The position numbers and the translations under genes were made by a program. From Squalus acanthias (lineage: Eukaryota), in assembly GCA_030390025.1 (NCBI GenBank), contig CM059431.1, positions 116,686,001 to 116,750,000 of the forward strand: a DNA stretch of 64,000 bases, written 5' to 3'. A model generated the notes under the pieces. That model was not told the DNA's origin. It ran no database searches and was given only the letters and a program-made list of their open reading frames with translations. Shown piece by piece: positions 5,958 to 63,822 of this stretch; position 1 is the first letter of the stretch, and each line of letters starts with the position of its first letter.

Positions 5958-5993
5958 TACAAGCTTTCGGAGCTGTCGCTCCTTCTTCAGGTA
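5958..5993 (-). ncRNA. Minimal type-I hammerhead ribozyme motif in PLE1 inverted pLTR
   Basis: Reverse complement reads tac-CTGAAGA-a-GGAGC gaca GCTCC-GAAA-GC-TT-gta. Confidence 0.8.
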
Positions 5994-7306: not shown

Positions 7307-7342
7307 TACCTGAAGAAGGAGCGACAGCTCCGAAAGCTTGTA
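7307..7342 (+). ncRNA. Minimal type-I hammerhead ribozyme motif in PLE1 forward pLTR
   Basis: tac-CTGAAGA-a-GGAGC gaca GCTCC-GAAA-GC-TT-gta: intact core, stem I tac/gta, stem II 5 bp, palindromic AGCT stem III. Confidence 0.8.
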
Positions 7343-9130
7343 ATTTTAAATAAATCTGTTGGACTATAACCTGGTGTTGTGCGACTTCTCAGTTGTACAA
7401 GGTATTGGTGAGACCGCACCTGGAATACTGCATACAGTTTTGGTGTCCATACTTAAGAAAAGACATACTTGCTCTCGAGTCAGTACAAAGAAGGTTCACT
7501 CAGTTAATCCCGGGGATGAGGGGATGGACATATGAGGAGAGGTTGGGTAGATTGGGACTCTACTCATTGGAGTTCAGAAGAATGAGAGGCGATCTTATTG
7601 AAACATATAAGATTGTGAAGGTGTTGGATTGGGTGGATGCGGGGAGGATGTTCCCGATGATGGGTGAAACTAGAACTAGGGGGCATAGTCTTAGAATAAG
7701 GGGCTGCTCTTTCAAAACTGAGATGAGAAGGAACTACTTCACTCAGAGGGTGGTAGGTCCATGGACTATGCTGCCCCAAAAAGCTGTAGAAGCTACATCA
7801 TTACATAAATTTAAAACAGAAATAGACAGTTTCCTAGAAGTAAAGGGAATTAAGGGTTATGGGGAGCGGGCAGGAATTTGGACATGAGTATAGGTTCGGA
7901 TTGGTCATGGCCCTGTGGGTAGCGCAGCGGGCCCAGGGGCCGTGTAGCCTGATCCTGCTCCTATTTCGTGAGTCCAATTCTGTTAGGTTCAGGAGATGGT
8001 TCTGTGATAGTAGATTGGCGGTTAGGATCAGATCAGCCATGATCTTATTGAATGGCGGAGCAGGCTCGAGGGGCCAATTGGCCTACTCCTGCTCCTATTT
8101 CTTATGTTCTTATGTTCTTATGAACCAATTAGTGTATTCAGTCTGAAAGTCGCCTCTGATGATGTCATCATTGCTGCTGCATTGAAGGTCTTCAGAGACT
8201 GCCTGGCCTTTGCTGTGAGAGGACCTGGATGCAAAATGAGCAGCAGCCCTAAGTCTGCTCCCAGATATTTTTACACCACCACTTCCAGATATGTCTCCTC
8301 CCCATCCATCCATATATGCATCCATCCACATAGCCATCCATATATGCATCTCCATAGCCAGCCAGCCAGCGTGCCAAATGTGCTCCCGCCAGGTTTCACA
8401 TTTGTGGTTCAGAACAGGCGTGCTTCACGTAGAAAAAGGGTGAAAATCACAAAGGCCTTTCAAAATGGCATTATAGAGGCAATTTAGTGCTTGTTAAAGG
8501 CCTTAACAGCCTATCCCGCCTCTAAGAGGCGGGACGGCGTCGGGACCAGCAGACACGATTTAATGAAAATTGCGTGGAGGCGGGATGGAGGCGGGCTCAT
8601 GCCCGCCCGCCAGTTTTCGCAATTTTAACCCCCCACACGCCTCCAAACCCACCTCCACGGGTCAATGAAAATCCAGCCCACATAGTCTGTTTCAACCTGA
8701 GTGGGTAGAAAGGAAAAGGGATGGAATCAGTGTCAAGGGAACAGAGTTTTTATATAACCAAATCTAAAAATTATGGCTTTAGTCTGAGCAGAAATGGCTT
8801 TTACTCCCTTAATATTCAGATGGTAGATAACCACCAGCAAAATAATTATGCAACTTAATGGTCTGTTTTCTGGGGAGTGTTTATAATGTATAAATAAAGT
8901 GAAGATTTTCTCTGTGCACTAGCTATGGCAAAATCAGGAACCTGTTCTTTCTGTTCTTTATAAACATGTTTACAATTTTGCTAAAGTACAAAGGAAATCT
9001 CCTATCTTGAAGGAATCAAGGAGTTCCCTGCTGTTCAAGACAGAATGCAAGATTGACACCTGGGAAATGAGGGCAGCCCACCACAAATGCAACTGCTGAC
9101 AGATGCCTTTCTGCAGAACCCCCAGGCTCA

Positions 9131-10616: not shown

Positions 10617-11086
10617 ACCTGTGGCTCAGTTGGTAGCACACTTGCCTCTGAGTCACAAGGCAATGGGTTCATAGTCCCACGCCAGGGACTTGAGCACATA
10701 AAACTAGGCTGACACTCCAGTACAGTGCTGAGGGAGTGCTGCACTGTCGGAGGTGCCGTCTTTCAGATGAGACGTTAAACCGAGGCCCTGTCTGCTCTCT
10801 CAGGTGGATGTAAAAGATCCCATGGCACTATTTTGAAGAAGAGCAGGGGAGTTACCTCGATGTCCTGGCCAATATTTATCCCTCAACCAACATAACAAAA
10901 ACAGTTTATCTGGTCATTATCACATTGCTGTTTGTGGGAGTTTGCTGTGTGCAAATTGGCTGCCGCGTTTCCCACATTACAACAGTGACTACACTCCAAA
11001 AGTACTTCATTGGCTGTAAAGCGCTTTGATACGTCCGGTGGTCGTGAAAGGCGCTATAGAAATGCAAGTCTATTCTTTTCTTTTTC
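10617..11086 (+). mobile_element. tRNA-derived Deu-domain SINE (SacSINE1-like), full length
   Basis: A box TGGCTCAGTTGG and B-box-like GGTTCATAGTCC; Deu-like core GCCGTCTTTCAGATGAGACGTTAAACCGAGGCCC; further copies at 49682 and 60024/63569. Confidence 0.8.
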
Positions 11087-17875: not shown

Positions 17876-18644
17876 GAAGCTAATTTGAAAACCTAAACTG
17901 TGAAGCAGCATTCTGTTTTTCTTGTGCGGCGAGTTATTTCGGGCCGGCAATGTAACTCAAATCTGTCAATCCTTTGTAGCTGCAAATAGGTACTTGTCTC
18001 GCAACCTGTACCAGTGGAGTGACAACACTCCTAGCCTGTTTCACACCCCAGAAATAAGCATTGCACTTTACTTTGCAAAACATATGCTGAATATGCTCTA
18101 GTAGTGTGAAGGTGAGTAAGCTTTTCCCTTGATATTTTCTTTAAATATGTGCATAACCTTTGGATAAACCCACTGTTTTCTGTGTGCCACAATCCAATAA
18201 CAAGACAGTTTAACAACACGCCATTTGGTACAGATCGCACGTCCTAATTTGACCATTAGGTTCTCATGGGAAGTAAATCTGTTCAGAATGTCCAGCACAG
18301 CCCAAAATCTCAGTATCACTTCAAAAATGGGGCAATTTAAACCTATACGAGTTGAGGTAAAAATAAATGAAATTATATTTATATAGTCAGAGATATATTG
18401 CTTTGATGGCACAAGTACAATTTTCAGTAATAGATTGCTGTTCATGGTTAAGATAAGACATTTAACTTGATATTCTACCACTTTGATCATTCGATTCAAA
18501 GGGATGATAAAACGTGCTGGGAAAGTCAACAGGGTTTTGTTTACCTGTGTTTTTCTTTGTGGGAGCAGGAATCAATATTTTTGTTGATGTACAGCAACCA
18601 GGCCATTAAATGAGCTTTTCAAAAGCACTTAATTAATAATGTGG

Positions 18645-19013
18645 TTATGGTAGCATAGTGGTTATGTTACTGGACTAGTAATTCAGAAACGTGGACTAAT
18701 AATCCAGGGACGTGAGTTCAAAACTCACCATGGCAGCTGGGGAATAAAAAGCTACTATCAATAATGGTGACCATGAAACTACTGGATTGTTGTAAAAAAA
18801 CATCTGGTTCACTAATGTCCTTTCGGGGACTAAATCTGCAGTCCTTACCTAGTCTGGCCTATATGTGACTCCAGACCCACAGCAATGTGGTTGACTCTTA
18901 ACTGTTCTCTGAAATGGTGGCTCACCGCCACCTTCTCAAGCGCAATTAGGGATGGGCAATAATTGCATTTAATTGCCAGTGATGCCCACATCCCATGAAC
19001 AAATTTAAAAAAA
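18645..19013 (+). mobile_element. tRNA-headed SINE sharing 5' head and 3' tail with the LINE at 60214-63565
   Basis: A box TAGCATAGTGG and B-box-like AGTTCAAAACTC. Body matches about 60223-60521; tail GCTCACC..CCTTCTCAAG..AATTAGGGATGGGCAATAA..CCCACATCCCATGAA followed by an A-rich end. Confidence 0.85.
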
Positions 19014-20362: not shown

Positions 20363-20772
20363 TGGGGTGCAGTAGCATAGTGGTTATGTCACTGGACTAG
20401 TAATCCTGAGGCCTGGGCTGATGATCCAAATGAATGTAGTTCAAATCCCACCACGGTAACTGGGAAATTTAAGTTCAATTAATTAAATAAATCTGGAAAA
20501 AAAGGGCTAGTAGCAATGACCATGAAACTACCAGATTATCAAATCCCTCTGGTTCACTAATGTCCTTTAGGGAAGGAAATCTGCCATCCTTACCCAATCT
20601 GGCCTATATGTGACTCTAGACCCACAGCAATGTGGTTGCTCTGAAATGGCCTAGCAAGCCATTCAGTTCTATAAGGGAGCTCACCAACACCTTCTCAAGG
20701 GAAATTAGGGATGGGCAAAAAATGCTGGCATTGCCAGTGACGCCCACATCCCCTGAATGAATTAAAAAAAAA
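20363..20772 (+). mobile_element. Second copy of the tRNA-headed SINE
   Basis: A box TAGCATAGTGG, B box AGTTCAAATCC, same body and LINE-type tail, poly(A). Confidence 0.85.
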
Positions 20773-22471
20773 ATCACATTAGCATCAAATTCTTTTATCT
20801 AGCTCCACTTAAAGAGTGGATAGAGAAATTTTACATGATTGAGCTAAACATTTGTATGATAACATCACTAACAATAACTTCCAGGCTTCTGTGATTTTTT
20901 AATTCAAGAGGGGAGCATTTAATAAAAATTGCTGTTGTGATTTTTTTTAAAAGGAAAGGGGATTTTCAGTAAATGTCCTCAGTTGTGATAAGCCACAGAT
21001 AATAACAGGCACACCAATTCCATCAAATTCGCGACAACACAAGCTAATTTATAAAAGGAAGTTAGTTAATCAAAAATATTGCAGACTGTTCTCAGCTAAC
21101 TGCTCATCTAAATTTTTTTCACATCCTGTTTCTATCAGTGTGGGTCTCTTTCAATGTATCTCTATTCCTTTGGTTGTTTTTTAAAAAAATTCAAAATCAA
21201 AATGATTTATTTCAACATGGTTTTCCTACATTTCTCATTTTTTTAGATCGCAAGCTTCAGGTTTCAGTCAGAACTAAAGTTCCATAAAGTTCATCATTCA
21301 CACAATTTACTGCAAGTCAAAATTTTGAGCTTGTATTTGCTTTTATCTATCATGAGACTCCAAAATGGCCATAACATGGGAATAAGAGGAATTCAAGAAG
21401 ATAATATAGTTTCAGGGCCATTTGAAGCTCTTTATTTCTTTTAACTTGATTCTAGAAAGAGAAAAGAATAGTTCAGCAATATTTTATTGTCCATCACCAT
21501 TTCATAAGTGAATGTCATTGCCCACAATTTATTTTGAACTGTTGTCTGACTTACACCCTGTTATAAGAGCTTTAAATTTGTTTTAATACAATACAATATG
21601 ATTTAATCAAATTATTATACATTTTTGTATACTACAGTTATGTCGTTATTGAAAGCATCTAGAACAGTTTATAAATTCCAGACAATTATTTAATAGCAGT
21701 TCACCAGGGCTTTAACATAAATGAAGAACTCAGCCCAGTTTTGAGCCATCCCAACACAGAAATTCCTTGAGGGTATGCCATGCTTGCATAAATTATAATA
21801 AATTAAAATAGTCTTTAAAGTGAAGTACATTTATATATTTAATCATGCTTATATACTTTTTTTGGGGTGAGCCCTAAAGATAGCATCTCTGCATGCCAAA
21901 CAACCACACCCAGAAGGGTGGCTTTACTAGCAGTTGATCCTGACAACTCAACCAGCGCTCCTCTGAAAACGATCGGCCCCCATCGTCACTGCTGAGCTGA
22001 CGGTTGGGAATTTAGTAATAGTTGTCGTAAATACTTTTATTATTTTCGGAGAAATTTTCTGTTAGTTTCTGCTCGTCAGGGTGAAGATGTCAATGACGTA
22101 AAATGGTCTGTTTTAATAATTTTTGACATCCACTGTTGGGCCTGAATATATGGGTTACAATTAGATTTGCCTTTTCCAAACTCTCCCATCAATGTCCTTT
22201 AACCTGAACTCAAAGCAGCATTCTTTTTTAGGACATCTGAATTTCCCACATCAGTTTTCTAATGGCCTCTCTGAGCAAGACTGCTAATTTACTGTCATTT
22301 GCACAGAAGCACGGGCAGTTTTGTGCTTCAGTGTTGCACTCAATAGGAACTGAATTAAGATTATTTTAACTCATTTTAATAATGATATTATAGCCACTGC
22401 AGAGGGGAAAACTTTAATCCATCACTCCTGGCTGGATTCTAAATCAGGTCCTGCTGGTGAAAGGACAGTGT

Positions 22472-26647: not shown

Positions 26648-27390
26648 AAATCTTTCGGAATTCTATAGTTACTATGGTAGACAGCACGGACAGGAAACTG
26701 TAATATATGAATACATAGTTATGGCTAGTAGACTCATCCACATTCATCCCAGACTGTGCAATGTGATTAGCCCATCCTCTAATGATGATAGAAAACGGAT
26801 GCCCTTCTTTTAAATTAAGATCCGTGAAGTTCAGATCCAAAGCTCAGGAGCTCAGCATGGAGGCAAACTGGCCTCCACTGCCACTACTACTTATTCCTCC
26901 ACATTTATGCTCTTATGTATCACCCAGTGCACCCTCCTATAACTCACGATCAGTCCATCCTGTATTAGGACAACTTGCTGTGTGAAGCCTTTTTAAGATG
27001 CCAATATGACCAGAGTATCAGTGGTAAGTTGAAGCTTGAATTTGTGCCATGCTGTCGATTTTGTGGCATGGTAACCCAGGGGCAGCTACTTGGCATAGGA
27101 AACATTTGGGCATTCTGACCTTAGTAGCTATCCTGAAGTTGGCCGTCTTCCTCCTTGGCAATCATGTCCTCTGGGCATTGTAAGCTATCTCCTACCTGGC
27201 ATTTTTTCTGGGGAGGCTGTTCTTGAGTACCAAACAAGGCAGCCTTCTTTTGTTTCATGTAATACAGTATCGACACAAGTTAGCAAGGCTATAAAAAAAG
27301 CATGATGTGGAGATGCCGGTGTTGGACTGGGGTGGACAAATGTGAGAAGTCGCACAACACCAGGTTATAGTCCAACAGCTTTATTTGAAA

Positions 27391-27427
27391 TCACAAGCTT
27401 TCGGAGCGCTGCTCCTTCGTCAGGTGA
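27391..27427 (-). ncRNA. Hammerhead ribozyme motif, PLE2 inverted pLTR (intact core)
   Basis: Reverse complement reads tcac-CTGACGA-a-GGAGC agc GCTCC-GAAA-GC-TT-gtga. Confidence 0.82.
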
Positions 27428-28237
27428 AGTGAAGAGATGCATATAGGCACAGCATATATAGTCAGAGAACACTGCCAGATGATTACAGTTAATCTTTCTA
27501 ACTGCCCTTTATCACACCTCGGCAGAGAGATAATCACAGCAATCCAAGGTGTGGATGGTGTCGAAACAGGTCAGTCAGGAAAACATTACATCAAAGACAA
27601 TGAGGTGGGGTCACAAGGGGTCAATTGTGGCAGATGCTGGGGTCTGTGTGGAAAACAAAAAACAGTTTTTGCTGGAAATCACAGCAGGTCCGGCCGCATC
27701 TGTGTAGAGAGAACAAGCCAACGACGACTCGAGTCTGGATGACTCTACGTCAGGTGGGGTTACATGTAGCGTGACATGAACCCAAGATCCCGGTTGAGGC
27801 CGTCCTCATGGGTGCGGAACTTGGCTATCAGTTTCTGCTCGATGAATTTGCGTTGTCGTGTGTCTTGAAGGCCGCCTTGGAGAACGCTTACCCGAAGATC
27901 GGAGGCTGAATGTCCTTGACTGCTGAAGTGTTCCCCGACTGGGAGGGAACACTCCTGCCTGGCGATTGTTGTGCGGTGTCCGTTCATACGTTGTCGCAGT
28001 GTCTGCATGGTCTCGCCGATGTACCATGCTCCGGGGCATCCTTTCCTGCAACCTATCAGGTAGACAACGTTGGCCGAGTCACATGAGTATGTACCATGTA
28101 CCTGGTGGGTGGTGTCCTCACATGTGATGATGGTATCTGTGTTGATGATCTGGCATGTCTTGCAGAGGTTGCCGTGGCAGGGTTGTGTGGTGTCGTGGTC
28201 GCTGTTCTCCTGAAAGCTGGGTAATTTGCTGCGAACT

Positions 28238-28361: not shown

Positions 28362-31037
28362 ATGGCTACTATCGACACCACAAACTGCCGGCTCAAAGTG
28401 GAGAGGATCTCCAAGAAGATTGCGCATATCGACACAGACATCAAGTTTCTACAGAGATGCAAGAAAGCAGACAAGATCCCGAAAGGGCTACAGATCACGA
28501 ACCCACTCAAGTCGACATACAACACAGACTACGCTGAGAGACTCTGCCGTCGTACCTCTCGCACACTCCTCAACCATCTCGTACACCAGCTCTACAGCAG
28601 ACGCCGCAACCTCGAAACCAAGATAGAGTCCATGTTCTCAGCCTGTGCTCAGGACACAGCAGACCAGCTATGAGACACCACCAAACAGACGAGGCAACGG
28701 AACTATGCTACCTGCATGCACACCAAGAACAGGAAGCTTGAGAAATTCGGCATCACCACCAGCAGCAACCAAGCCTCTCCCGGTACCATGGTTGCAACCA
28801 CAGGGAAGTCCATCATCAACTTGTCCGACCACACCCTTCAACTAAACAAAATCGAAGTTCTCAGCTGAGGGCTCAATTTCTGTCCCACCACCAAAATGGA
28901 CCCCGTCGGTCTCGCGGCAGACACAGAGGAATTCATCTGGAGAATGAGGCTCCGGGAATTTTTCCACGAATCCCAAGATGTCAGCAGCGAACCCAATGAG
29001 ACAATCAATGATCCGGAACAGCAGACAGAGGGACCCGCAGTGCAGCAACCGAAGAAGAAAGAGTCAAATTGGACCCCTCCGGAGGGTTACTGGCCTGAGC
29101 TTGACATGTATGCTCAAGCTGTCAGGAGATGCATCAACGCCAGATTCATCAGCCGCACTCACAAGACTGTCCAGAATGTCACCCGAGCACAACGCAACGC
29201 CATCCACGCTCTCAAGACCAACCGCAACATCGTCATCAAACCAGCGGACAAAGGAGGAGCCATCATCATACAGAACAGAATGGACTATTGCAAAGAAGCA
29301 TACCGACAACTGGACAACCAGGAACACTACAGACAGTTACCCACAGATCCGACCATAGAACACACCCGCCAACTGAATAGACTGATCAAGACCTTCGATC
29401 CAGTCCTTCAAAGCATCCTACGTGCTCTCATCCCACGTACTCACCGCGTGGGAGACTTCTACTGCCTCCCAAAGATACACAAAGCCAACACACCCAGACG
29501 TCCTATTGTATCAGGCAACGGAACCCTGTGTGAGAACCTCTCTGGATACGTCAAGGGCATCCTGAAACCCATCGTACAGGGAACCCCCAGCTTCTGTCGC
29601 GACACTACAGACTTCTTACAGAAACTCAGCACCCACGGACCAGTTGAACCAGGAACACTCCTCGCCACGATGGACGTCTCGGCACTGTACACCAGTATCC
29701 CCCACAATGACAGCATCGCTGCGACAGCCTCAGTACTCAACACCAACAACAGCCAAACTCCAGATGCCATCCTACGACTCATCTGCTTCATCCTTGACCA
29801 CAATGTCTTCACCTTCAACAACCAGTTTTTTACCCAAACACACGGAACAGCCATGGGGACCAAATTCGCACCCCAATACACCAACATCTTCATGCACAAG
29901 TTCGAGCAAGACTTCTTCGCTGCACAGGACCTCCAACCAACGCTATACACCAGATACATTGACGACATTTTCTTCCTATGGACCCACGGTGAAGAATCAC
30001 TGAAAAGACTACACGATAACATCAACAAGTTCCATCCCATAATCAAACTCACCATGGACTACTCCTCAGAATCAGTTTCATTCTTGGACACACGAATCTC
30101 CATCAAAGATGGACACCTCAGCACTTCACTCTACCGCAAGCCCACGGACAACCTCACGATGCTCCACTTCTCCAGCTTCCACCCTAACCATGTTAAAGAA
30201 GCCATCCCCTATGGACAAGCCCTGTGAATACACAGGATCTGCTCAGACGAGGAGGAACGCGATAGACACCTACAGACGCTGAAAGATGCCCTCGTAAGAA
30301 CGGGATATGACGCTCGACTCGTCGATCGACAATTCCGACGGGCCACAGCGAAAAATCGCATAGACCTCCTCAGAAGACAAACACGGGACACAACCAACAG
30401 AGTACCCTACGTCGTCCAGTACTTCCCCGGAGCGGAGAAACTACGCAATGTTCTTTGCAGCCTTCAGCATGTCATCGATGACGACGAACACCTCGCTAAG
30501 GCCATCCCCACGCCTGCACTACTCGCCTTCAAACAGCCGCCTAACCTCAAACAGACCATCGTTCGCAGCAAATTACCCAGCTTTCAGGAGAACAGCGACC
30601 ACGACACCACACAACCCTGCCGCGGCAACCTCTGCAAGACATGCCAGATCATCAACACAGATACCATCATCACACGTGAGGACACCACCCACCAGGTACA
30701 TGGTACATACTCATGTGACTCGGCCAACGTTGTCTACCTCATACGTTGCAGGAAAGGATGCCCCGGAGCATGGTACATCGGCGAGACCATGCAGACACTG
30801 TGACAACGTATGAACGGACACCACGCAACAATCGCCAGGCAGGATTGTTACCTCCCAGTCGGGGAACACTTCAGCAGTCAAGGACATTCAGCCTCGGATC
30901 CGCGGGTTAGCGTTCTCCAAGGCGGCCTCCGAGACACACGACAACGCAAAATCGTCGAGCAGAAACTGATAGCCAAGTTCCGCACCCATGAGGACGGCCT
31001 CAACCGGGATCTTGGGTTCATGTCACGCTACATGTAA
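28362..31037 (+). pseudogene. PLE reverse transcriptase + GIY-YIG endonuclease (891 codons before the stop, one frame, 4 premature TGA)
   Basis: MATIDTT… start; INLS…GLNFCP; PADKGG; LATMDVSALYTSIPH; GTAMG; YTRYIDD; PCRGNLCKTC linker; VVYLIRC…WYIGET. Stops at 28671, 28866, 30225 and 30801. Confidence 0.93.
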
Positions 31038-31369
31038 CCCCACCTGACGTAGAGTCATCCAGACTCGAGTCGTCGTTGGCTTGTTCTCTCTACACAGATG
31101 TGGCCGGACCTGCTGTGATTTCCAGCAAAAACTGTTTTTTTGTTTTCCACACAGACCCCAGCATCTGCCACAATTGACCCCTTGTGACCCCACCTCATTG
31201 TCTTTGATGTAATGTTTTCCTGACTGACTTGTTTGGACACCATCCACACCTTGGATTGCCGTGATTATCTCTCTGCCGAGGTGTGATAAAGGGCAGTTAG
31301 AAAGATTAACTGTAATCACTGGCAGTGTTCTCTGACTATATATGCTGTGCCTATATCCATCTCTTCACT

Positions 31370-31406
31370 TCACCTGACGAAGGAGCAGCGCTCCGAAAGC
31401 CTGTGA
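31370..31406 (+). ncRNA. Hammerhead motif in PLE2 3' pLTR, U16.1 mutated (GAAAGCCTGTGA)
   Basis: Same as 28238-28274 apart from one T>C in the cleavage triplet. Confidence 0.7.
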
Positions 31407-33887
31407 CTTCAAATAAAGCTGTTGGACTATAACCTGGTGTTGTGCGACTTCTCACATAAAAAAAGCGAACCAAGAACTAGGGTTTATTTCTAGAGGATAG
31501 AACCTAAAAGTAGGGAGGTTATGCTAAACCTGTATCGAACCTTGGATAGACCACACTTAGAGTACTGCGTACAGTTCTGGTCACTGGAGAGGGTGCAGAG
31601 AAGATTTACAAGGATGATACCAGAAATGCAAGGGTATACATATCAGGAAAGGATGAATAAGCTGGGTCTCTTTTCTCTTGAAAAAAGAATGCTGTGGGGT
31701 GAACTAATAGAGGTCTTTAAAATTATGAAAGGTTTTGATAGAGTGGATACAGAGAGAATGTTTCCACTTGTGGGGAAGAGCATAATTGGAGGCCATCAAT
31801 ATAAGATAGTCACCAAGAAATCCAATAGGGAATTCAGAAGAAACTTCTTTACCCAGAGAGTGGTGAGAATGTGGAACTCGTGGTTGAAGCGAATAGTATA
31901 GAAGCATTTAAGGGGAGGCTAGTCAAGCATATGAGGGAGAAGGGAATAGAGGGTTATGCTGATAGATTTAGATGAGTAAAGACGGGAGGAGGCTCGTGTG
32001 GAGCATAAACGCCGGCATGGACTGGTTGGGCCGAATGGCCTGTTTTCGTGCCGTATATCCTATGTAATCCCATGTAGCATCTCCTAAAGAGCAGCATCCA
32101 TAGCTTCCGTTGCATGGTGATTGAAACCCTCCATTTTACTGCAGTTGTTTACCTTCAATTCTTGCTGGTCAGCTGAAACTGCAGCCTTTACATTGGTCAT
32201 TGCAGCTCTAAGTAGCTGTCAGCAAAGCAAGCACTACCATAGGCAGCCCATTGTGCTCAATATAAATAGGAAAAAAAAGTGCAAATGGTGGATTTTTAGG
32301 TGAGAATGGCTGTGTGAGCAAAGTTATTGAGATGCTTTCACATCGTGCCTCAATGGCAATTTATGAGATGGTCTAAATCGTGACAAATAACAATTGCAAG
32401 ACAACTGTCTGTTGTTCTGTAAAATAGTATTTTAAAAGCTTGCAATATTCTTGGAGGATTTCTCCAGTAATTTAAATATTGTAAATGACACTGTTTTCAA
32501 TGGTAGCCATACATCAGTGCCTCTGGTACCTTCCAACATAGGACTACTTTCTGAAAAATAAGGTTTGACAGCCCCCCGGTTGTTTGGACAGGAAGAAGGG
32601 CCAAATGATTCCCGCGTTATTTTCACCATAATGTTGTATGGGAATAATGACATGATATAATCAGCGTATAATCATCTTGTTGCATATTTGCAAAAGAACT
32701 CAAACTATATTTTGACAAATGCTTATGCTGAACTGGTCGCTTACATTAAAACTTTGTGACCTGTAATATCGGCCAAGGGCTTTCTGACAAAACCAAGAAA
32801 CGCAGACTCCAGAGACCCAACATCCTAATTTAATTTAAAATGACTAATGCAGCCTCTACACGGGAGAAAAACGGCTGAGGTAAAGGTTGACAGGAACAAT
32901 GTCCCCAGGTCTTCTTCCTGTAATGATAAGACTGCTGAGAAAACTCCAAGGAAAGGATAGTAGAATGCTCTAGTTCGAACTGCTCAAGGTCATCTGCTGA
33001 CACAGCACCTACTGCAGCTAGTAAACACTTGACTTAAAAATAATTAACACTTTGAGGAAAGCACTGTTCTGTGTTGGCTTTTAATGCATGTGGAAGGACT
33101 AGAGGTGCCTGCCCAAGTGCAGCTTCATGTGTTAGCTTCTGATGCAATAATATTTACCTAAATTGATGTTGTCCTTATATGTAATGTACAGCCCTGAAAA
33201 TGAAAGTGAATTACAAATGACCAGCCCTTGGGAGATGTGGGACATGAGTCTATCAAGGTAGTTCGAAGGTAACATACTCCATTCTTTTGGAAGGGGGTTG
33301 GCAGATCCCACTGCTTGTCTCATGACTAAAGAGATTAGCTCGTAATACTTACTGACACTTCAAAAAAATAAATAAGGAAGCACAGTGAAGGATAAGACCA
33401 ACAAAGATACTCATGGAATGGTCCTGGAGAGGACCCTTTCGCTGATGCCATCCTGGAATATTGCTATGTAGTGGCGATTAATATAAAGAATTGCTGGCTA
33501 CATAAAGAAGTCCAGTAAGTGAAGATAATTGAAAAAGAAGCCTGCAAAGTAAGGACAAGATACAGAGAGGCCAATTCCTGCCCACAGCACATTACAACTC
33601 AATTGAATTTGATTGACCATGGGGAGGGGGAATTGTGTTGCCATTATCTGAAAACAGAATTTATTTTGAAGGAAATGGTGTAATTGTTCCCTGTTGAATA
33701 TCTCCCCCCATAATATTCCTTAATAGTTAGCATTGTACAACTAAACTTCGATCTGGTTATGTTTTAACATTCAATTAAAGGGGCCATTTGAACCCCGCCT
33801 GCCCAGCGGAAACCAGGCGGGCAGACATTTAAAATTGCCGTGGGATTTATTCGCCAATCACCCACTCTTTTCCTTTAAGTTGCATAG

Positions 33888-40212: not shown

Positions 40213-42241
40213 AATAGGTTTGTTGAGCACAACAAGTGTTCAGTTCTTTTTGTTTTGAACAGCCCACCCTGAGTCAGAAGACGGTTGTAATTATTTAGCT
40301 CTTGTCATAGTTCCATTGTTTACACCCGTGAAGGACAGTATAGCAATGGTTCCAATCACTCCAATATGATGCTGTTCTTCATGGGCGGTACTGCCAGAAT
40401 TCCAATGCGAACACAGTGAATCAAGAGCTTTATGACATTTTTCACACTCACTAAATGTTGTGATGTGTATTCTTCGCAAACATCCATTGGAAATTTCTTT
40501 ACAATGTAACTGGAGAATCTGCCTGCATTTATATCACTGTTAGAGCCATCAAAGAACACAAGAACATAAGAACATAAGAAATAGGAGCAGGAGTAGACTA
40601 TTTGGCCCTTCGAGCCTTCAATAAGATCATGGCTGATCTTCAACCTCATCTCCACTTTCCTGAACTATCCCCATATCCCTTGATTCCCTTAATATTCAAA
40701 AATCTATCGATCTCTGCCTTGAATATACTCAACGATTGAGCCTCCACAGCCCTCTGGGGTAGAGAATTCCAAAAATTCACCAACCTCTGAGTGAAGAAAT
40801 TTCTCCTCATCTCAGTCCTAAATGGCCGACCCTTTATTCTGAGACTGTGACCCCTGGTTCTAGACTCCCCAGCCAGGGGAAATATCCTCCCTGCATCTAC
40901 CCTGTCAAGCCCTGTAAGAATGTTTCAATGAGATCCCCTCTCATTCTTCTAAACTCTAGAGAATATAGGTCGAGTCTACTCAATCTGTCCTCATAGGACA
41001 ATCCCCCTATCCCAGGAACCAGTCTGGTGAACCTTCGTTGCACTCCCTTTATGGCAAGTATATCCTTCCTTAGGTAAGGAGACCAAAACTGTACACAATA
41101 CGCCAGGCGTGGTCTCACCAGGGCCCAATATAATTGCAGCAAGATGCCTTTACTCTTATACTCCAATCCGCTTGTAATAAAGGCCAACATACCATTTGCT
41201 TTCCTAATTGCTTGCTGTACCTGCATGTTAACTTTCAGTGATTCGTGTACAATGACACCAAGATCCCGCTGAACACCAACATTTCCCAATCTCTCACCAT
41301 TTAAAAAATACTCTGCTTTTCTATTTTTCCTACCAAAGTGGATAACTTCACATTTCTCCACATTATATTCCATTTGCCATGTTCTTGCCCACTCACTTAG
41401 CCTGTCTATATCCCCTTGAAGCCTCCTTGCATCCTCTTCACAAATTACATTCCCATCCAGCTTTGTATCATCAGCAAACTTGGATATATTACATTTGGTC
41501 CCCTCATTCAACTCATTGATGTTGAATGTGAATAGCTGAGGCCCAAGCACTGATCCTTGCGGTACTCCACTAGTTACAGCCATGTAACCCGATAATGACC
41601 CGTTTACTCTCTGTTTTCTGTCCATTAACCAATCCTCAATCCATGCTGGTATATTACCCCCAATCCCATGAGCCCTAATTTTGTTTAATAACCTCTTGTG
41701 TGGCACCTTATCGAATGCCTTCTGAAAATCCAAATACACCACACCCACTGGTTCCCCCTTATCAATTCTGCTAGTTACAACCTCAAAAAACACTGACAGA
41801 TTTGTCAAACACAATTTCCCTTTCATAAATCCATGTTGACTCTGGCCAATCCTATTATTACTTTCTAAGTGCCCTGTTACCACGTCCTTAATAATAGATT
41901 CTAGCATTTTCCCTACTACTGATGTCAGGCTAACTGGTCTGTAGTTCCCCATTTTCTCTCTCCCTCCTTTCTTAAATAGTGGGATTACATTTGCTACCTT
42001 TCAATCCGTTGCAACCATTCTAGAATCTATGGAATTTTGGAAAATGACAACAAATGCATCCACTATCTTTATAGCCAACTCTTTCAAAACCCTAGGATGT
42101 AGGCCATCAGTCCCATTAATTTCTCTAGTACTACTTTTTTACTAATACTAATATCTTTCAGTTCCTCATTCTTGTTAGACCCCTGGTTGTCCACTATTTC
42201 CGGAAAGTTTTTGCGTCTTCTTCCATGAAGACAGACACAAA

Positions 42242-45200
42242 GGCTCCGATTTTAACTCCAGGTGGATTCCCTGCTCAAGACTTAGTTAAAATTACAGTCA
42301 GGTCTCAATAATGTTATTGGGCCACAATATGCATCTATAAAGATTCAATATTCAGGAAGGACAGACAAAAAGGAAAAGGAGGGGGGTAGCATTGCTGGTT
42401 AAAGAGGAGATTAACACAATAGTAAGGAAGGATATTAGCTCTGATGATGTGGAATCTGTATGGGTAGAGCTGAGAAATACCAAGGGGCAGAAAACGTTAG
42501 TAGGAGTTGTATACAGACCCCCAAACAGTAATGCTGAGGTTGCGGATGGCATTAAATGGGAAATTAGAGAGGCGTGTAATAAGGGCACAGCAGTTATCAT
42601 GGGTGACTTTAATCTACATATAGATTGGGCTAACCAAATTAGTAACAATACTAAGGAGGAGGAATTCCTAGAGTGTATATGGGATGGTTTCCTGGACCAA
42701 TATGTCGAGGAACCAACTAAAGATCAGGCCATCTTAGACTGGGTATTATGTAATGAGAAAGGATTAATTAGCAATCTTGTTGTGCGAGGCCCCTTGGGGA
42801 GGAGCAATCATAATATGATAGAATTCTTCATTAAGATGGAGAGTGAAGTAGTTGACTCAGAGACTAGGGTCCTGAATTTAAATAAAGGAAACTATGATGG
42901 TATGAGGCGCGAGTTGGCTAGGGTGGATTGGGGAGCATTACTTAAAGGGTTGACGGTGGATAGGCAATGGCAAACTTTTAAAGATCGCATGGATGAACTA
43001 CAGAATTTGTTCATCGCTGTTTGGCATAAAAATAAAACAAAAAAAGTAACTCAACCGTGGCTAACAAGGGAAATTAGGGATAGCATAAGATCTAAGGAGA
43101 GGACATATAAATTGGCCAGAAAAAGCAGCAAACCTGAGGATTGGGAACAGTTTAGGATTCAGCAAAGGAGGACAAAGGGATTAATTAAGAGGGGGAAAAT
43201 AGAATATGAGAGTAAGCTTGCAGGAAACATAAAAACTGACTGTAAAAGCTTCTATAGATATGTGAAGAGAAAAAGATTGGTGAAGTCAAACATAGGTCCC
43301 TTGCAGTCAGAATCAGGGGAATTTATAATGGGGAACAAAGAAATGGCTGACAAATTAAATACATACTTTGGTTCTGTCTTCACAAAGGAGGACACAAATA
43401 AACTCCCAGAGATGTCGGGGAACATAGGGTCTAATGAGAGGGAGGAATTGAATGAAATCACTATTTGTAGGGAAATGCTGTTAGGGAAATTGACGGGATT
43501 GAAGGCTGATAAATCCCCAGGGCCTGATAATCTATATCCTAGGGTACTTAAGGAAATGGCCCTAGAAATAGTAGATGCATTGCTGGTCACCTTTCAAAAT
43601 TCTATAGACTCTGGAACAGTTCCCATGGATTGGAGGGTAGCTAATGTAACCCCACTATTTAAAAAAGGTGGTAGAGAAAAAACAGGGAATTATAGACCAG
43701 TAAGCCTGACACCGGTAGTGGGAAAAATACTAGAGTCCATTATAAAAGATGTAATAGCAGAGCACTTGGAAAACAGTGACAGGATCGGACAAAGTCAACA
43801 TGGATTTACAAAAGGGAAATCATGCCTGACTAATCTACTGGAATTTTTTGAGGATGTAACTGGTAGAATAGATAAGGGAGAAACAGTGGATGTGGTGTAT
43901 TTGGACTTTCAGAAGGCTTTCGATAAGGTCCCGCATAAGAGATTAGCGTGCAAAGTTAAAGCACATGGGATTGGGGGTGAGGTACTGATTTGGATAGAGA
44001 ACTGGTTGGCAGACAGGAAGCAAAGAGTTGGAATAAACAGGTCTTTTTCCGAGTGGCAGGCAGTGACTAGTGGGGTACCACAGGGATTGGTGCGAGGACC
44101 CCAGCTATTCACAATATATATAAATGATCTAGACGAGGGAACTAGATGTAATATCTCGAAGTTTGCAGACGACACAAAGCTGGGTGGGCGTGTGTGCTGT
44201 GAGGAGGATGCAGAGAAACTCCAGTATGATTTGGACAGGTTGAGTGATTTGGCAGATGCATGGCAGATGTAGTATAATGTGAATAAATGCGAGGTTATCC
44301 ACTTTGGTGGCAAAAACAGGAAGACAGATTATTATCTGAACGGCAATAGACTGGGAAAAGGGGAAGTGCAACGAGATCTGGGAGTCCTTGTGCACCAGTC
44401 GCTGAAGGTAAGCATGCAGGTGCAGCAGGCGGTTAAGAAGGCAAATGGTATGTTGGCCTTCATAGCGAGAGGATTCGAGTACAGGAGCAAGGATGTCTTG
44501 CTGCAGTTGTACAAGGCCTTGGTGAGACCACACCTTGAGTATTGTGTGCAGTTTTGATCGCCTTATCTTAGGAAGGATGTTCTTGCCATGGAGGGAGTGC
44601 AGCAAAGATTTACCAGACTGATACCTGGGATGGCAGGAATGACCTATGAAGAGAGATTGGGTAGATTAAGCTTATATTGGCTAGAGTTTCGAAGAATGAG
44701 AGGGGATCTCATTGAAACTTATAAAATTCTAACAAGACTAGACAGACTAGATGCAGGAAGGATGTTACCGATGGCGGGGGAGTCCAGAACCAGAGGTCAC
44801 AGTCTAAGGATAAGGGGTAAGCCATTTAGGACTGAGATGAGGAGGAATTTCTTCACCCAGAGAGTGGTGAACCTGTGGAATTCTCTACCACAGTAGGTAG
44901 TTGAGGCCAATTCATTAAATATATTCAAAAAGGAGATAAATATATTTCTTAAGGCTAAAGGGATCAAGGGATATGGGGAGAAAGCAGGGACAGGGTACTG
45001 AATTTGGATGATCAGCCATGATCTCATTAAATGGCGGAGCAGGCTCGAGGGGCCGAATGGCCTACTCCTGCTCCTATCTTCTATGCTTCAATGACCCTGT
45101 TGGCTCCGGGCACATGGCCTTGCTGCCTGCTCAGGCGAGCAGGTTAAAATTGCAAGTGTTGCGATCATGGCAGCTTTCGGACAGGTAAGAGCCTGGGCGA

Positions 45201-49681: not shown

Positions 49682-50158
49682 AAAGAAAGAAAGACTTGCA
49701 TTTATATAGCGCCTTTCATGACCACCGGACGTCCCAAAGCGCTTTACAGCCAATGAAGTACTTTTTTGAAGTATAGTCACTGTTGTAATGTAGGAAACAT
49801 GGCAGCCAATTTGCACACAGCAAACTCCCACAAACAGCAATGTGATAATGGCCAGATAATCTGGTTTTTTTTTAGTGATGTTGGTTGAGGGATAAATATT
49901 GGCCAGGACACTAGGGATAACTCCCCTGCTCTTCTTCAAATTAGTGCCATGGATTCTTTTACACCCACCTGAGAGAGCAGACGGGGGCCTCGGTTTAAGG
50001 TCTCATCTGAAAGACGGCACCTCCGACAGTGCAGCACTCCCTCAGCACTGCACTGGAGTGTTAGCCTAGATTTTTGTGCTCAAGTCCCTGGGGTGGGACT
50101 TGAACCCACAACCTTCTGACTCAGAGGCGAGGGTGCTACCAACTGAGCCACGGCTGAC
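49682..50158 (-). mobile_element. Deu-domain SINE (SacSINE1-like), full length
   Basis: Reverse complement of 10617-11086; A box TGGCTCAGTTGG and B box GGTTCAAGTCC on the minus strand. Confidence 0.85.
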
Positions 50159-53501: not shown

Positions 53502-54445
53502 CATGATGCGGAGATGCCGGTGTTGGACTGGGGTGGACAAAAATGAGAAGTCGCACAACACCAGGTTATAGTCCAACAGTTTTATTTGAAATCACAAGCT
53601 TTCGGAGCTGTTGCTCCTTCATCGGGTGAAGTAAAGAGATACAGAATCGCCAAAGCATATATAGATAGAGAACAATGCATGTGTACCTTACAATGGTAGA
53701 CGACTAAATTTAATCATCCTGACTCTTTATCTGCCGAGGTGTGACAAAAGGCAATCAGGTCAGCCAGGAAGGACCCACATCAAAGACATAGCAAGATACA
53801 ACTGAGACAATGAGGTGGAGTTACAGGGGGTCTAACGTGTCAAAAGCTGCAGTCAGTATGTAAAACGATAAACTTTAAAATTTTTACTTTTTTACTGGGA
53901 ATCACATCTGTGAACAAGCCAACGACGACTCGAGTCTGGATCACGTCATGTATTGTGACATAAACCCAAGATCGCGGTTGAGACCGTCCTCATGAGTGCG
54001 GAACTTGGCTATCAGTTTCTGCTCGATGATTTTGCGTTGTCGTGTGTTTCTAAGGCCGCCTTGGAGAACGCTTACCCGCAGATCCGAGGCTGAATGTCCT
54101 TGACTGCTGAAGTGTTCCCCGACTGGGAGGGAACACTCCTGCCTGGTGATTGTTGCGCGGTGTCCGTTCATACGTTTTCTCAGTGTCTGCATGGTCTCGC
54201 CGATGTACCATGCCGCGGTGCATTCTTTCCTGCAACGTATGAGGTAGACAACGTTGGCCGAGTCACATGAGTATGTACCATGTACCTGGTGGGTAGTGTC
54301 CTCACGTGTGATGATGGTATCTGTGTTGATGATCTGGCATGTCTTGCAGAGGTTGCCGTGGCAGGGTTGTGTGGTGTCGTGGTCGCTGTTATCCTCAAAG
54401 CTGGGTAATTTGCTGCGAACAATGGTACTTCTGAGGTTAGGCGGC
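53502..54445 (-). mobile_element. PLE3: 5'-truncated Penelope-like copy (GIY-YIG + pLTR) inserted in the Harbinger element
   Basis: GIY-YIG ORF 53941-54445. Same terminal CATGATG.GGAGATGCCGGTGTTGGACTGGGG as PLE2. Hammerhead at 53592-53629 with the core mutated to CCGATGA. Confidence 0.92.
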
Positions 54446-57564: not shown

Positions 57565-58680
57565 CCTGAGAGATCAATGGGAATCGGGGGGAAACTCTCC
57601 ACTGGCTGTAGTCATACCTAGCACAAAGGAAGATGGTTGTGGTGATTGATGGTCAATTGTCACAGCCCCAGGACATCGCTGCAGGAGTTCCTCAGGGCAG
57701 TGTCCTAGGCCCAACCATCTTCAGTTGCTTCATCAATGACCTTCCCTTCAACATAAGGTCAGAAATGGGGATGTTCGCTGATGACTGCACAGTATTCAGT
57801 GCCATTCACAACTCCTCAGATAATGAAGCAGTCCATGCCCGCCTGCAACAAGACCTGGACGACGTTAAGGCTTGGGCTGATAAGTGGCAGGTAACATTTG
57901 CGCCTCACAAATGCCAGGCAATGACTATCTCCAACAAGCGAGAGTCTAACCACTGCCCCTTGAAATTCAATGGCATTACCATCGCCGAATCCCCCATCAA
58001 CAACATCTTGGGTGTCACCATTGATGCAGAAACTTAACTGGACCAGCCACATAAATACTGTGGCAACAAGAGCAGGTCACAGGCTAGGTATTCTGCGGCG
58101 AGTGTCTCACCTCCTGACTCCCCAAAGCCTTTCTACCAACTACAAGGCAGAAGTCAGGAGTGTGATGGAATACTCTCCACTCGCCTGGATGAGTGCAGCT
58201 CCAACAACACTCAAGAAGCTCGACACCATCCAGGACAAAGCAGCCCGTTTGATTGGCATCCCATCCACCACTTTAAACATTCACTCCCTCCACCACTGGC
58301 ATACCGTGGCTGCAGTGTGTACCATCTATAAGCTGCACTGCAGCAACTCGCCAAGGCTTCTTTGGCAGCACCTCCCGAACCTGCGACCTCTTCCACCTAA
58401 AAGGACAAGCGCAGCAGGCGCATGGGAACACCACCACCAGGTTCCCCTCCAAGTCACACACCATCCTGACTTAGAAGTATATCGCTGATCCTTCATCGTC
58501 GCTGGGTCAAAATCCTGGAACTCCCTCCCTAACAGCACTGTGGGAGTACCTTTACCAGACGGACTGCAGTGGTTCAAGAAGGCGGCTCACCACCACCTTC
58601 TGAAGGGCAATTAGGGATGGGCAATAAATGCTGGCCTTGCCAGCGACGTCCACATCCCATAAATGATTTTTTTTTTAAAT
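57565..58680 (+). mobile_element. 5'-truncated LINE of the same family as 60214-63565 (CR1-group, distinct from the other CR1s here)
   Basis: GVPQGSVLGPTIF, MFADD, LGVTID.KLNWTSH; tail GCTCACCACCACCTTCT.AAGGGCAATTAGGGATGGGCAATAAATG. Confidence 0.9.
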
Positions 58681-60023: not shown

Positions 60024-63000
60024 TACCTCGCCTCTGAGTCAGAAGGTTGTGGGTTCAAGTCCCACTCCAGAGGCTTGAGCGCAAAAATCTAGATTGACAC
60101 TCCAGTGTAGTACTGAGGGAGTGCTGCGCTGTCGGAGGTGCCGTCTTTCGGATGAGACGTTAAACAGAAGCCCTGTCTGCTCTCTCAGGTGGACATTAAA
60201 GATCCCATGGCACGGTATGGGAATGGTAGCATAGATGTTTTGTTACTGGACTAGTAATCCAGAAGCCTGGACTAATGATCCAGAGACGTGAGTTCAAATC
60301 CCACCACGGCAGCTGGGGAATTTAAATTCAGTTAATTAAATCAATCTGGAATAAAAAGCTAGTATCAGTAATGGTGACCATGAAACTATCGGATTGTCGT
60401 AAAAACCCATCTGGTTCACTAATGTCCTTTAGGGAAGAAAACCTGCCGTCTTTACCTGGTCTGGCCTATATGTGACTCCAGACCCACAGCAATGTGGTTG
60501 AGTCTTAACTGCCCTCTGAAATAAGAAGAATAAAACCGGACGGACCATCCGGCATTGACCTCGGGACCGGCTACAGACACGACAAAGGCACACCCAGCCC
60601 AGTCGACCCTGCAAAGTCCTCCTCATGAACATCTGGGGACTTGTGCCAAAATTGGGAGAGCTGTCCCACAGACTAGTCAAGCAACAGCCTGACATAGTCA
60701 TACTCACAGAGTCATACCTTTCAGCCAATGTCCCAAACTCCTCCATCACCATCCCTGGGGTATGTCCTGTCCCACCGGCCGGACAGACCCACCAGAGGTG
60801 GTGGCACAGTGGTATACAGTCGGGAAGGAGTAGCCCTGGGAGTCCTCAACATTGACTCCAGGCCCCATGAAGTCTCATGGCTTCAGGTCAAGCATGGGCA
60901 AGGAAACATCCTGCTGATCACTACCTACCGCCCTCCCTTAGCTGATGAATCAGTACTCCTCCATGTTAAACACCACTTGGAAGAAGAGTAGCAAGGGCAT
61001 AGAATGTACTCTGGGTGGGGAATTTCAATGTCCATCACCAAGAGTGGCTCGGTAGCACCACTACTGACCGAGCTGGCCGAGTCCTGAAGGACATAGCTGC
61101 TAGAATGGGCCTGCGACAGGTGGTGAGAGAACCAACACGAGGGAAAAACCTACTTGACCTCGTCCTCACAAATCTAACTATCACAGATGCATCTGTCCAT
61201 GGCAGCATTGGTCGCAGTGACCACCGTACAGTCCTTGTGGAGACGAAGTCCCATCTTCACACTGAGAACACCCTCCAGCGTGTTGTGTGGCACTACCACC
61301 ATGCTAAATGGGATAGATTCAGAACAGATCCAGCAGCTCAAAACTGGGCATCCATGAGGCGCTGTGGGCCATCAGCAGCAGCAGAATTGTATTCCAGCAC
61401 AATCTGTAACCTCATGGCCTGGCATTTCCCTCACTCTACCATTACAATCAAGCCAGGGGACAACCCTGGTTCAATAAGGAGTGTATAAGAGCATACCAGG
61501 AGCAGCATCAGGCGTACTTAAACATAAGGTGCCAACCTGAGGAAGCTGCAACACAGGACTACATGCATGCTAAACAGTGGAAGCAGCATGCTATAGACAG
61601 GGCTAAGCAATCCCACAATCAACGGATCAGATCAAAGCTCTGCAGTCCTGCCACATCCAGTTGTGAATGATGGTGGACAATTAAACAACTAACGGGAGGA
61701 GGAGGCTCCCTGAATAACCCCATCCTCAATGAAGGCAGAGCCCAGCATGTGGGTGCAAAAGACAAGGCTGAAGTGTTTGCAACCATCTTCAGCCAGAAGT
61801 GCCGAGTGGATGATCCATATCAGCCTCCACCTGAGGTCTCCACCATCACAGAAGCCAGTTTTCAGCCAATTCGATTCACTGCACATGATATCAAGAAACG
61901 GCTGAGCGCACTGGATACAGCAAAGGCTATGGGCCCCGACAATATCCAGGCTCTCGTGCTGAAGACCTGTGCTCCAGAACTAGCTGCGCCTCTAGCCAAG
62001 CTGTTCCAGTGCAGCTACAACACTGACATCTATTCGACAATGTGGAAAACTGCCCAGGTATGTCCTGTCCACAAAAAGCAGGACAAATCCAATCCGCCCA
62101 ATTACCGTCCCTTCAGTCTACTCTCAATCATCAACAAAGTGATAGAAGGTGTCGTCGACAGTGCTATCAAGCGGCACTTACTTACCAATAACCTGCTCAC
62201 CGATGCTCAGTTTGGGTTCCGCCAGGGCCACTCAGCTCCAGCCTTGGTCCAAACATAAACAAAAGAGCTGAATTCCAGAGGTGAGGTGAGAGTGACTGCC
62301 CTTTTTTTTTTTTATTCGTTCATGGGATGTGGGTGATGCTAGCAAGGTCAGCATTTATTGCCCATCCCTAGTTGCCCTTGAGATGGTGGTGATGAGCCAC
62401 CTTCTTGAACCGCTGCAGTCTGTGTGGTGAATGCACTCCCACAGTGCTGTTAGGGAGGGAGTTCCAGGATTTTGACCCAGCGACGATGAAGGATCGGCGA
62501 TATCCTTCCATGTCAGGATGGTGTGTGACTTGGAGGGGAACTTGGAGGTGGTGGTGGTGTTCCCATGCGCCCGCTGCCCTTGTCCTTCTTGGTGGTAGAG
62601 GTCGCGGGTTTGGGAGGTGCTGCCGAAGAAGCCTTTGCGAGTTGCTGCTGTGCATCTTGTAGATGGTACACATTGCATCCATGGTACGCCGGTGGTGGAG
62701 GGAGTGAATGTTTAAGATGGTCGATGGGGTGACAATCAAGCGGGCTGCTTTGTCCTGGATGGTGTCGAGCTCCTTGAGTGTTGGAGCTGTGCTTATCCAG
62801 GCAATTGGAGAGTATTCCAAAACATTCCTTACTTGTGCCTTGTAGATGGTGGTAAGGCTTTGGAGAGTCAGGAGGTGAGATACTTGCCGCAGAATACCTA
62901 GCCTCTGACTTGCTCTTGTTGTCACAGTATTTATGTGGCTGGTCCAGTTAAGCTTCTGGTCAATGGTGACCCCCAGGATGTTGATGGTGGGGGATTTGGC

Positions 63001-63822
63001 AATGGTAATGCCATTGAATGTCAAGGGGGTGGTGGTTAGATTCTCGCTTGTTGGAGATATTCATTGCCTGGCACTTGTATGGCATGAATGTTATCTGCCA
63101 GTTATCAGCCCAAGCCTGAATGTTGTCCAGGTCTAATTACATGTGTGCATAGACTACTTCATTATCTGAGGAGTTCTGAATAACACTGAACACTGTGCAG
63201 TCATCAGCGAACATCCCCATTTCTGACCTTATGTTGGAGGGAAGGTCATTGATGAAGCAGCTGGAGATGGTTGGGCCTAGGACACTGCTCTGAGGAACTC
63301 CTGCAGCAATGTCCTGGGGCTGTGATGATTGAGCTCCAACCACCACAATCATCTTCCTTTGTGCTAGGTATGACTCCAGCCAGTGAAGCGTTTTCCCCCC
63401 AATTCCCATTGACTTCAGTTTTACTAGGGCTCCTTGATGCCACATTCGGTCAAATGCTGCCTTGATGTCAAGGGCAGTCACCCTCACCTCACCACCTTCT
63501 CAAGGGCAATAAAAGTGCTGGCCTTACCAGCGACGCCCACATCCCATGAACAAATACAAAAAAACTATCTATTTTGAAGAAGATCAGGAGAGTTACCCCC
63601 GATGTCCTGGCCAATATTTGTCCCTCAACCACCATCACTAAAACAGATTATCTGGTCATTTTCACATTGCTCTTTGTGGGAGCTTGCTGTGTGCAAATTG
63701 GCTGCCATGTCTCCTACATTACAACAGTGATTACAGTTTCAAAAAATGTACTTCATTGGCTGTAAAGCTTTGGGACATCCAGTGGTCATGAAAGGCGCTA
63801 TATAAGTGCATATCTTTCTTTT
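60024..63822 (+). mobile_element. Deu-domain SINE split into 60024-60213 and about 63569-63822 by the LINE insertion
   Basis: The intact copy reads GATCCCATGGCACTATTTTGAAGAAG. Here GATCCCATGGCAC ends at 60213 and CTATTTTGAAGAAG resumes at about 63569. Confidence 0.85.
60214..63565 (+). mobile_element. tRNA-headed APE-RT LINE: head and APE/RT-N on + (60214-62301), RT-C and tail inverted (62302-~63492), extra tail on + (~63487-63565)
   Basis: KVLLMNIWGL, VILTESYL, TTYRPP, GNFNVHH, SDH, KAMGPD, NYRP and QFGFR on +; LDIKAAFDR, GVPQ.SVLGP and MFADD on -. Confidence 0.9.

Follow-up and report, generated by a model that had tools for sequence, protein, structure and literature searches.

Closest described elements

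In the textbook division, LINEs are Pol II-transcribed and coding, whereas SINEs are non-coding, Pol III-transcribed parasites that share only the tail with their LINE. Zenon LINEs lack ORF1, carry poly(A) tails, and make up 4.4% of the spiny dogfish genome, and annotation of their elasmobranch members in a repeat repository is described as still lacking (Stuart et al. 2026, PMC13343379; here and below, for the accessible part of the paper). HE1 of sharks and rays belongs to the V-SINEs (PMC4824008). It is tRNA-derived and has its 3′ tail in common with a CR1-like LINE, HER1 (PMC3747384, PMC4824008). The Persaeus SIDEs of a lepidopteran Zenon are short, combine the two ends of the LINE (5′ and 3′), have arisen several times, and have neither tRNA homology nor a Pol III promoter (PMC6740152). 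Bipartite LINE-derived SINEs (Bov-tA, AfroSINE, and the RTE/Ingi/Vingi/R2 derivatives) have a 5′ part and a tail in common with a LINE (Kojima 2018, PMC5786205), but the tRNA head is found on the non-autonomous derivative only, and their LINE is without it (PMC5786205, PMC7245038). U6/L1, tRNA/L1, and Alu/L1 chimeras have a small Pol III RNA 5′ of LINE sequence, but they are one-off products at 21 loci, the tRNA halves are mostly antisense, and the U6 chimeras are not self-propagating (Law and Burns, 10.1101/2025.02.02.635956). These descriptions follow the accessible portions of the cited texts.

The element described here lies in a 64,000-nt stretch of spiny dogfish (Squalus acanthias) DNA, hereafter the window. 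It belongs to a shark and ray family that joins a SINE front end to LINE enzymes, against the textbook split. Unlike the small-RNA/L1 chimeras, as far as these are described in the accessible text, the elasmobranch Zenon has a head that is sense, full, and family-defining. In the literature searched, which lay outside Repbase, Dfam, and the original HE1 papers, no description was found of a tRNA head on an autonomous LINE family. The accessible main text of PMC13343379 contains neither "tRNA" nor "promoter" and has "SINE" once, in a reference; the accessible preprint likewise contains neither of the first two words and one unrelated "SINE". The tRNA/SINE head is already present in the published Zenon consensuses, though apparently unremarked.

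A rearranged Zenon copy inside a SINE

BLAST self-comparison within the window indicates that positions 60214–63568 are one LINE insertion inside another SINE, with the 3′ half inverted locally. The flanks, 60027–60213 and 63569–63822 (both forward strand), are the halves of a SINE that is contiguous in the intact copies at 10641–11079 and 49686–50132; therefore, 60214–63568 is a single insertion. We take the host SINE, split at 60213/63569, to be Deu-type and SacSINE1-like. A preliminary description of this DNA had ended the element at 62301. It runs instead to 63568, through its own inverted 3′ half and tail (62304–63493) and a second short tail.

The forward-strand part begins with five bases (60214–60218) that precede the consensus: by eye, the dogfish Zenon consensus starts at the base matching 60219. 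The tRNA-like head (60219–60312) has an A box at 60227–60237, decayed in this copy, and a B box at 60291–60301, the core of which starts at 60292. The head is followed by a SINE-type body (60313–60522), which is common to the LINE copy and the window SINEs and is predicted to hold the V domain of HE1. A spacer with a basic, Arg-rich lead-in (60523–60612), with about 45 nt deleted at 60522/60523, connects the body to the APE and the first half of the RT (60613–62303), where the reading frame is broken by frameshifts and one stop. The second half of the RT, the C-terminus, the 3′ tail, and the poly(A) (62304–63493) lie on the reverse strand, inverted in place. The second short 3′ tail (63483–63568, forward strand) has an internal deletion of 11–12 nt and an A-rich end. 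A-runs close both the inverted half (62304–62313) and the short tail, as expected of a Zenon poly(A).

Pfam Exo_endo_phos_2 (PF14529) matches the APE part with an E-value of 1e-8. RVT_1 (PF00078) matches the inverted half with 4.7e-16 and the first half with 4.4e-5, the latter below the cut-off. In total, three of the seven frame pieces have APE or RT matches and the other four have none. The parts are colinear with a 983-aa single-ORF relative: 60577–62321 (forward) corresponds to residues 15–615 and 63490–62404 (reverse) to residues 603–970. The copy is thus a single APE–RT frame without ORF1, and there is no room for ORF1 because the APE begins 90 nt (135 nt in the family) past the common body. 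The preliminary description was right in calling the element a single-ORF LINE, but the absence of ORF1 is nothing special and can be set aside as a novelty, being ordinary for all Zenons in the accessible text of PMC13343379. Another piece of Zenon LINE APE is included in an unnamed zinc-finger gene model (P0004; 66% identity over 87 residues), probably as a gene-prediction artefact.

The sequences overlap by 24 nt at the inversion break (62280–62303/63470–63493). In contigs of other organisms, the family runs colinearly past 62303, two runs having loose ends there in at least 176 and at least 281 records, respectively. The host SINE runs on past 60213 into its own right half (at least 710, at least 634, and at least 54 contig records of three runs). 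Therefore, the inversion and the insertion are both local. The same contigs and the 983-aa relative identify 62304–63493 as the colinear 3′ half of the element and rule out a second, independent LINE. The inversion might, at a guess, have arisen by a template switch at a CTCACC-like microhomology near 63483–63493; simple twin priming is rejected, as its orientation would not fit. A search for target-site duplications gave no clean one for the 60214–63568 element or for the two SINEs of the window.

A 5′-truncated copy of the same LINE, with the common tail, lies at 57574–58666 (forward strand). In a BLAST match it is 88% identical to the inverted half. Of 200 shuffled versions of its tail, 199 fold less well than the tail itself (z −2.79). 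This copy closes in a T-run rather than A behind the tail (58660–58680).

The window copy is assigned to Zenon by identity to the published consensuses over their first 400 nt, the single ORF, and the poly(A). It resembles the elasmobranch consensuses (Stuart et al. 2026, PMC13343379, accessible part) in the 5′ end, the APE–RT, the poly(A), and a length of about 3.3 kb, and differs from them in being decayed and partly inverted. The element at 60214–63568 is a full-length copy of an elasmobranch Zenon LINE, since decayed and rearranged locally.

The head is found throughout elasmobranch Zenon consensuses

The first 400 nt of the consensuses in Supplementary Table 2 of Stuart et al. 2026 (PMC13343379) were compared by eye and by motif search. 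Seven are elasmobranch Zenons, 2886–3314 nt long: Zenon-1 of CarCar, HypSab, RhiTyp, and ScyCan (white shark, Atlantic stingray, whale shark, and small-spotted catshark) and Zenon-1, -2, and -3 of SquAca (spiny dogfish). Within the first 400 nt, all seven open with the tRNA-like head, continue with the same body, and go on into the APE lead-in, whereas the head is missing from all three other vertebrate Zenon consensuses (two hagfish, one coelacanth). The accessible material thus gives the family as head, body, spacer of about 135 nt, single APE–RT frame, common tail, and poly(A), with a total length of 2.9–3.3 kb.

By eye, the window copy has about 15 mismatches to SquAca_Zenon-1 in the 304 nt of 60219–60522 (about 95% identity) and comes back into register after a deletion of about 45 nt between two AAAT repeats. 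In the copy, the last base of CTCTGAAAT is 60522 and the first base of the KVLL motif is 60613. The spacer of about 90 nt reported earlier is accordingly true of this copy and not of the family, which has about 135 nt in the visible consensus ends. Likewise, the KVLLMNIWGL motif is present in the copy, but its M is copy-specific, the two consensuses that reach the motif having Thr.

The preliminary description had offered a one-off SINE–LINE chimera as the alternative to an autonomous headed LINE. We consider it very improbable that the head–APE join is such a chimera at 60522, or an artefact of consensus extension. The window copy is indeed rearranged (inversion, extra tail, and 45-nt deletion), and the published consensuses were extended automatically, according to the accessible text of PMC13343379. 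However, the join is present in all seven of the consensuses, which were built separately and represent five species, sharks and one ray; it is not unique to this locus, and the family members represented by the consensuses do not have another 5′ end. The lengths of the pieces at the locus add up to about 3.3 kb. Against an artefact as well as a chimera, a raw genomic copy has about 95% identity over the head when set against the dogfish consensus, and it regains register after the deletion. In addition, in the accessible part of the table, the longest three genomic insertions have mean lengths of 3220–3322 nt in five families, 2870 nt in one, and 4347 nt in the stingray, in agreement with the consensus lengths. 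As these lengths match or exceed the consensus lengths, the head appears to be spanned within single genomic copies. The intact-ORF ratio is calculated on between 59 and 2313 elements in each family, with one corrupt cell; judging by the methods of the paper, as far as accessible, the elements counted are probably copies exceeding 80% length. The tRNA-headed family, on these figures, has hundreds to thousands of near-full-length copies. The head–body–spacer–APE–RT structure is therefore almost certainly real, family-wide, and old, being found in sharks and a ray.

The contigs neither show nor refute the join. Five organisms share 60–70% of the sampled words of 60214–61200, and the contigs of 4 runs (four organisms, of 24 runs listed) cover 30 of 30 bins of the element, their depth not being taken as copy number. 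Among the contig records listed for these 4 runs, none bridges 60522. Protein searches with the junction frames gave no match, and DNA pattern scans gave none in viral contigs and none in prokaryote genomes. A single metagenome pattern match was a chance 22-nt match in a bacterial contig and was discarded. In the contigs of one run, a head joint goes back from 60285 to 60246, with loose ends that resemble a tandem duplication in the tRNA-like arm.

Two SINEs in the window share both ends with the LINE

SINEs with the same head and body lie at 18645–19013 and 20365–20773 (both forward strand). BLAST aligns the head and body of the LINE copy (60219–60522) with 18647–18915 (E 3e-81; 89.2% identity over ungapped columns) and with 20372–20652 (E 9e-76; 88.1% identity over ungapped columns), so that the alignment reported in the preliminary description is real. 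The A box of the copy has two differences from the TAGCATAGTGG of the SINEs, the B box is retained, and the decay is specific to this copy. ARAGORN calls the SINE head at 18643–18737 as tRNA-Thr(AGT), the sole tRNA that it finds in the window. The Rfam tRNA match of the LINE copy (60236–60312) is weak, at 23.4 bits (gathering score 29; E 0.027). The heads fold no better than shuffles and give no structure signal.

The junctions of the SINEs were read by eye against the consensus and the tail at 58570–58660. In the first SINE, the tail is joined right after the body at a GGC microhomology. The second retains about 21 nt of LINE spacer, which are lost from the LINE copy at 60214 and absent from the first SINE, and its tail is joined at a GTT microhomology. 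A body leading directly into the tail, as initially described for both SINEs, is therefore found in one of them only. In both SINEs the two ends are colinear with the LINE and the junction lies within LINE sequence, at two different places. A third head-to-tail join, from 60520 to 62378, is present in at least 25, at least 19, at least 14, and at least 1 contigs of four organisms. A join from 60522 to 63490 is present in at least 6, at least 10, at least 2, and at least 1 contigs of four runs.

Several head-to-tail breakpoints at microhomologies are the expected leftovers of repeated internal deletion of a LINE. The window SINEs look like internal-deletion derivatives, as had been proposed, with two breakpoints in the window and the third in contigs of four organisms, and the junction sequences make it likely that they derive from the headed LINE in this way. 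Their tRNA heads, in which both the A box and the B box are present, set them apart from SIDEs as defined for Persaeus, which are without a small-RNA head; they work like SIDEs yet formally are SINEs. With or without Pol III, deletion of a headed LINE is a direct route of SINE birth. The origin and function of conserved SINE bodies become testable in a coding element, and shark repeat annotation will count LINE 5′ ends as SINEs.

These SINEs are likely HE1, and the LINE is likely HER1. In the work of Ogiwara et al. (1999, 2002), only the tail was reportedly common to HE1 and HER1. The window SINEs and the LINE differ from HE1/HER1, as characterized in the accessible literature, in sharing head and body too, not the tail alone.

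The SINE could be an independent lineage with its own masters, the common head being due to repeated SINE-to-LINE template switches or gene conversion. In favor of this account, V-SINEs with tRNA heads range from cnidarians to fishes (PMC4824008, accessible part), and bivalve V-SINEs use Zenon tails (PMC11481361). By eye, the heads of the window SINEs are of the dogfish type, not of the white-shark, catshark, or whale-shark type. SINE and LINE heads therefore track each other by lineage, which they would do under either direction of exchange. Independence of the SINE is nevertheless unlikely, in view of the LINE spacer of about 21 nt in one SINE and not in the other, the at least three breakpoints at short microhomologies, and the lepidopteran Zenon, which, in the accessible text, yields deletion products several times independently (PMC6740152).

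The head itself probably first entered the LINE from a SINE, and not the reverse, although the direction of exchange is judged from few copies. This direction is suggested because the non-elasmobranch Zenons are without the head, and because V-SINEs range from cnidarians to fishes and those of bivalves use Zenon tails; head and body are therefore likely older than the elasmobranch LINE.

The head as a candidate Pol III promoter

The A and B boxes are positioned at tRNA spacing at the 5′ end of the element. In the visible consensus ends, the B box is perfect in three species, while the sequence between the boxes has diverged. Six canonical spellings of the B box were found in only 3 of 1,003 CR1-group consensus 5′ ends, and all three are shark Zenons. 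We favor, with a probability of roughly 0.55, the reading that the tRNA-like head is a predicted Pol III promoter of the LINE and that the SINEs would be its deletion products.

T4 runs, which act as Pol III terminators, were counted on the sense strand. The three Zenon pieces of the window have 3 in 4355 nt, versus 20 in 7085 nt for three CR1 copies, which have 4–8 each and one T4 site in common. All three Zenon runs look copy-specific. The sites at 61860 and 62820 have other bases in about 96–99.6% of contig depth in all four runs. By eye, the T4 run of the head is missing from all seven elasmobranch consensuses, the visible 400 nt of which are without any T4; in the first 400 nt, T4 occurs in all three other Zenons and in 6 of 13 dogfish CR1 rows, which are not independent.

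For the 3 Zenon T4 runs observed, dinucleotide shuffles predict 3.4 and base shuffles 6.4 (P 0.15); the shortfall is significant under neither. Under a codon-level null, the two Zenon coding sequences have 8 runs of T3 or longer versus 20.0 and 12 versus 23.6 (0.4–0.5 of the null, P ≤ 0.002), and 2 runs of T4 or longer versus 4.4 (P 0.15) and 1 versus 5.7 (P 0.012). The CR1 controls have 34 versus 40.0 and 29 versus 38.2 for T3 or longer (0.76–0.85 of expectation), and 8 versus 11.4 and 4 versus 10.6 for T4 or longer (the latter in CR1_b, P 0.002). The depletion test is weakened because the CR1 control, too, falls under the codon null. Zenon Phe codons are biased to TTC (4:16, p 0.10; 4:17, p 0.04), and avoidance of TTT is marginal without double counting. 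As a sequence signal, the T-run depletion is suggestive only.

Alternatively, the head may be the true 5′ end of the family while Pol II transcribes the LINE, starting at a cryptic promoter within the head or body or reading through from the host. TFIIIC binding, a role in RNA structure, or exchange with the pool of SINEs would then account for the retained boxes. SINE sequences can serve as Pol II promoters, Pol II would more readily explain translation and polyadenylation, and the weakening of the T-run test by the CR1 control also speaks for this account. In the accessible texts, Pol II is the polymerase assigned to the 5′ ends of other LINEs and to the deletion products of these LINEs (PMC5786205, PMC6740152). 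Transcription by Pol II is still somewhat unlikely, given the two boxes at tRNA spacing at the exact 5′ end, with the perfect B box in three species despite the diverged interval, and given that the T4 runs observed in Zenon are copy-specific, whereas the CR1 copies have 4–8 each and share a site.

Translation start and proposed history

By eye, the visible consensus 5′ ends have no uninterrupted in-frame AUG ahead of the APE. A conserved ATG-GCC-TAG mini-frame at the end of the body reaches its stop at the third codon; its ATG is in frame with the APE in three of the six comparable consensuses and out of frame in the other three. A second conserved ATG, in the family spacer, is out of the APE frame. 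In the window copy, the stretch 60236–60624 is free of ATG codons in the APE frame, and the ATG at 60625 is copy-specific and is ruled out as a start codon. With no uninterrupted in-frame AUG before the APE, initiation would be non-canonical, or the protein would derive from Pol II read-through of some copies. AUG-independent translation of LINEs has precedents in R2 and in L1 ORF2; to our knowledge, there is little precedent for a protein of about 960 aa from an uncapped Pol III RNA.

Under the Pol III reading, the 5′ end of a Zenon LINE would have been captured, as head and body, from a SINE in the shark and ray ancestor. Both boxes would have been retained while the interval between them diverged by lineage, and head-to-tail deletion products would have been repeatedly released, travelling as SINEs on the RT of the LINE. 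TFIIIC would bind the boxes in every new full-length copy, Pol III would read about 3.3 kb, apparently without T4 terminators, and the RT would recognize the 3′ stem-loop tail and carry out target-primed reverse transcription. Protein from such an RNA would come from non-canonical initiation, or else from Pol II read-through of some copies. If Pol III drives Zenon, its RNA would be a naturally occurring Pol III transcript that is both long and protein-coding, on which cap-independent translation could be tested. The strongest form of this reading, namely an autonomous coding retrotransposon transcribed wholly by Pol III, capless and AUG-less, active since the shark and ray ancestor and continually deleting into SINEs, is one that we hold tentatively and regard as rather doubtful. 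Were it true, Zenon would combine SINE and LINE in a single element and serve as a living model of how conserved SINE bodies, such as the V domain, originate.

Other repeats in the window

A CR1 copy is tandemly duplicated at 1–2427 and 3445–5870 (2.4 kb, 97.8% identity). Two further CR1 copies, 40577–42114 and 42343–45082, lie back to back in opposite orientation and are 76% alike. An inverted pair of about 900 nt (27340–28236 and 30561–31457; 97% identity) surrounds about 2.3 kb, possibly as terminal repeats belonging to an element of DIRS-like or DNA type; related copies lie at 5867–7394 and 53502–54445.
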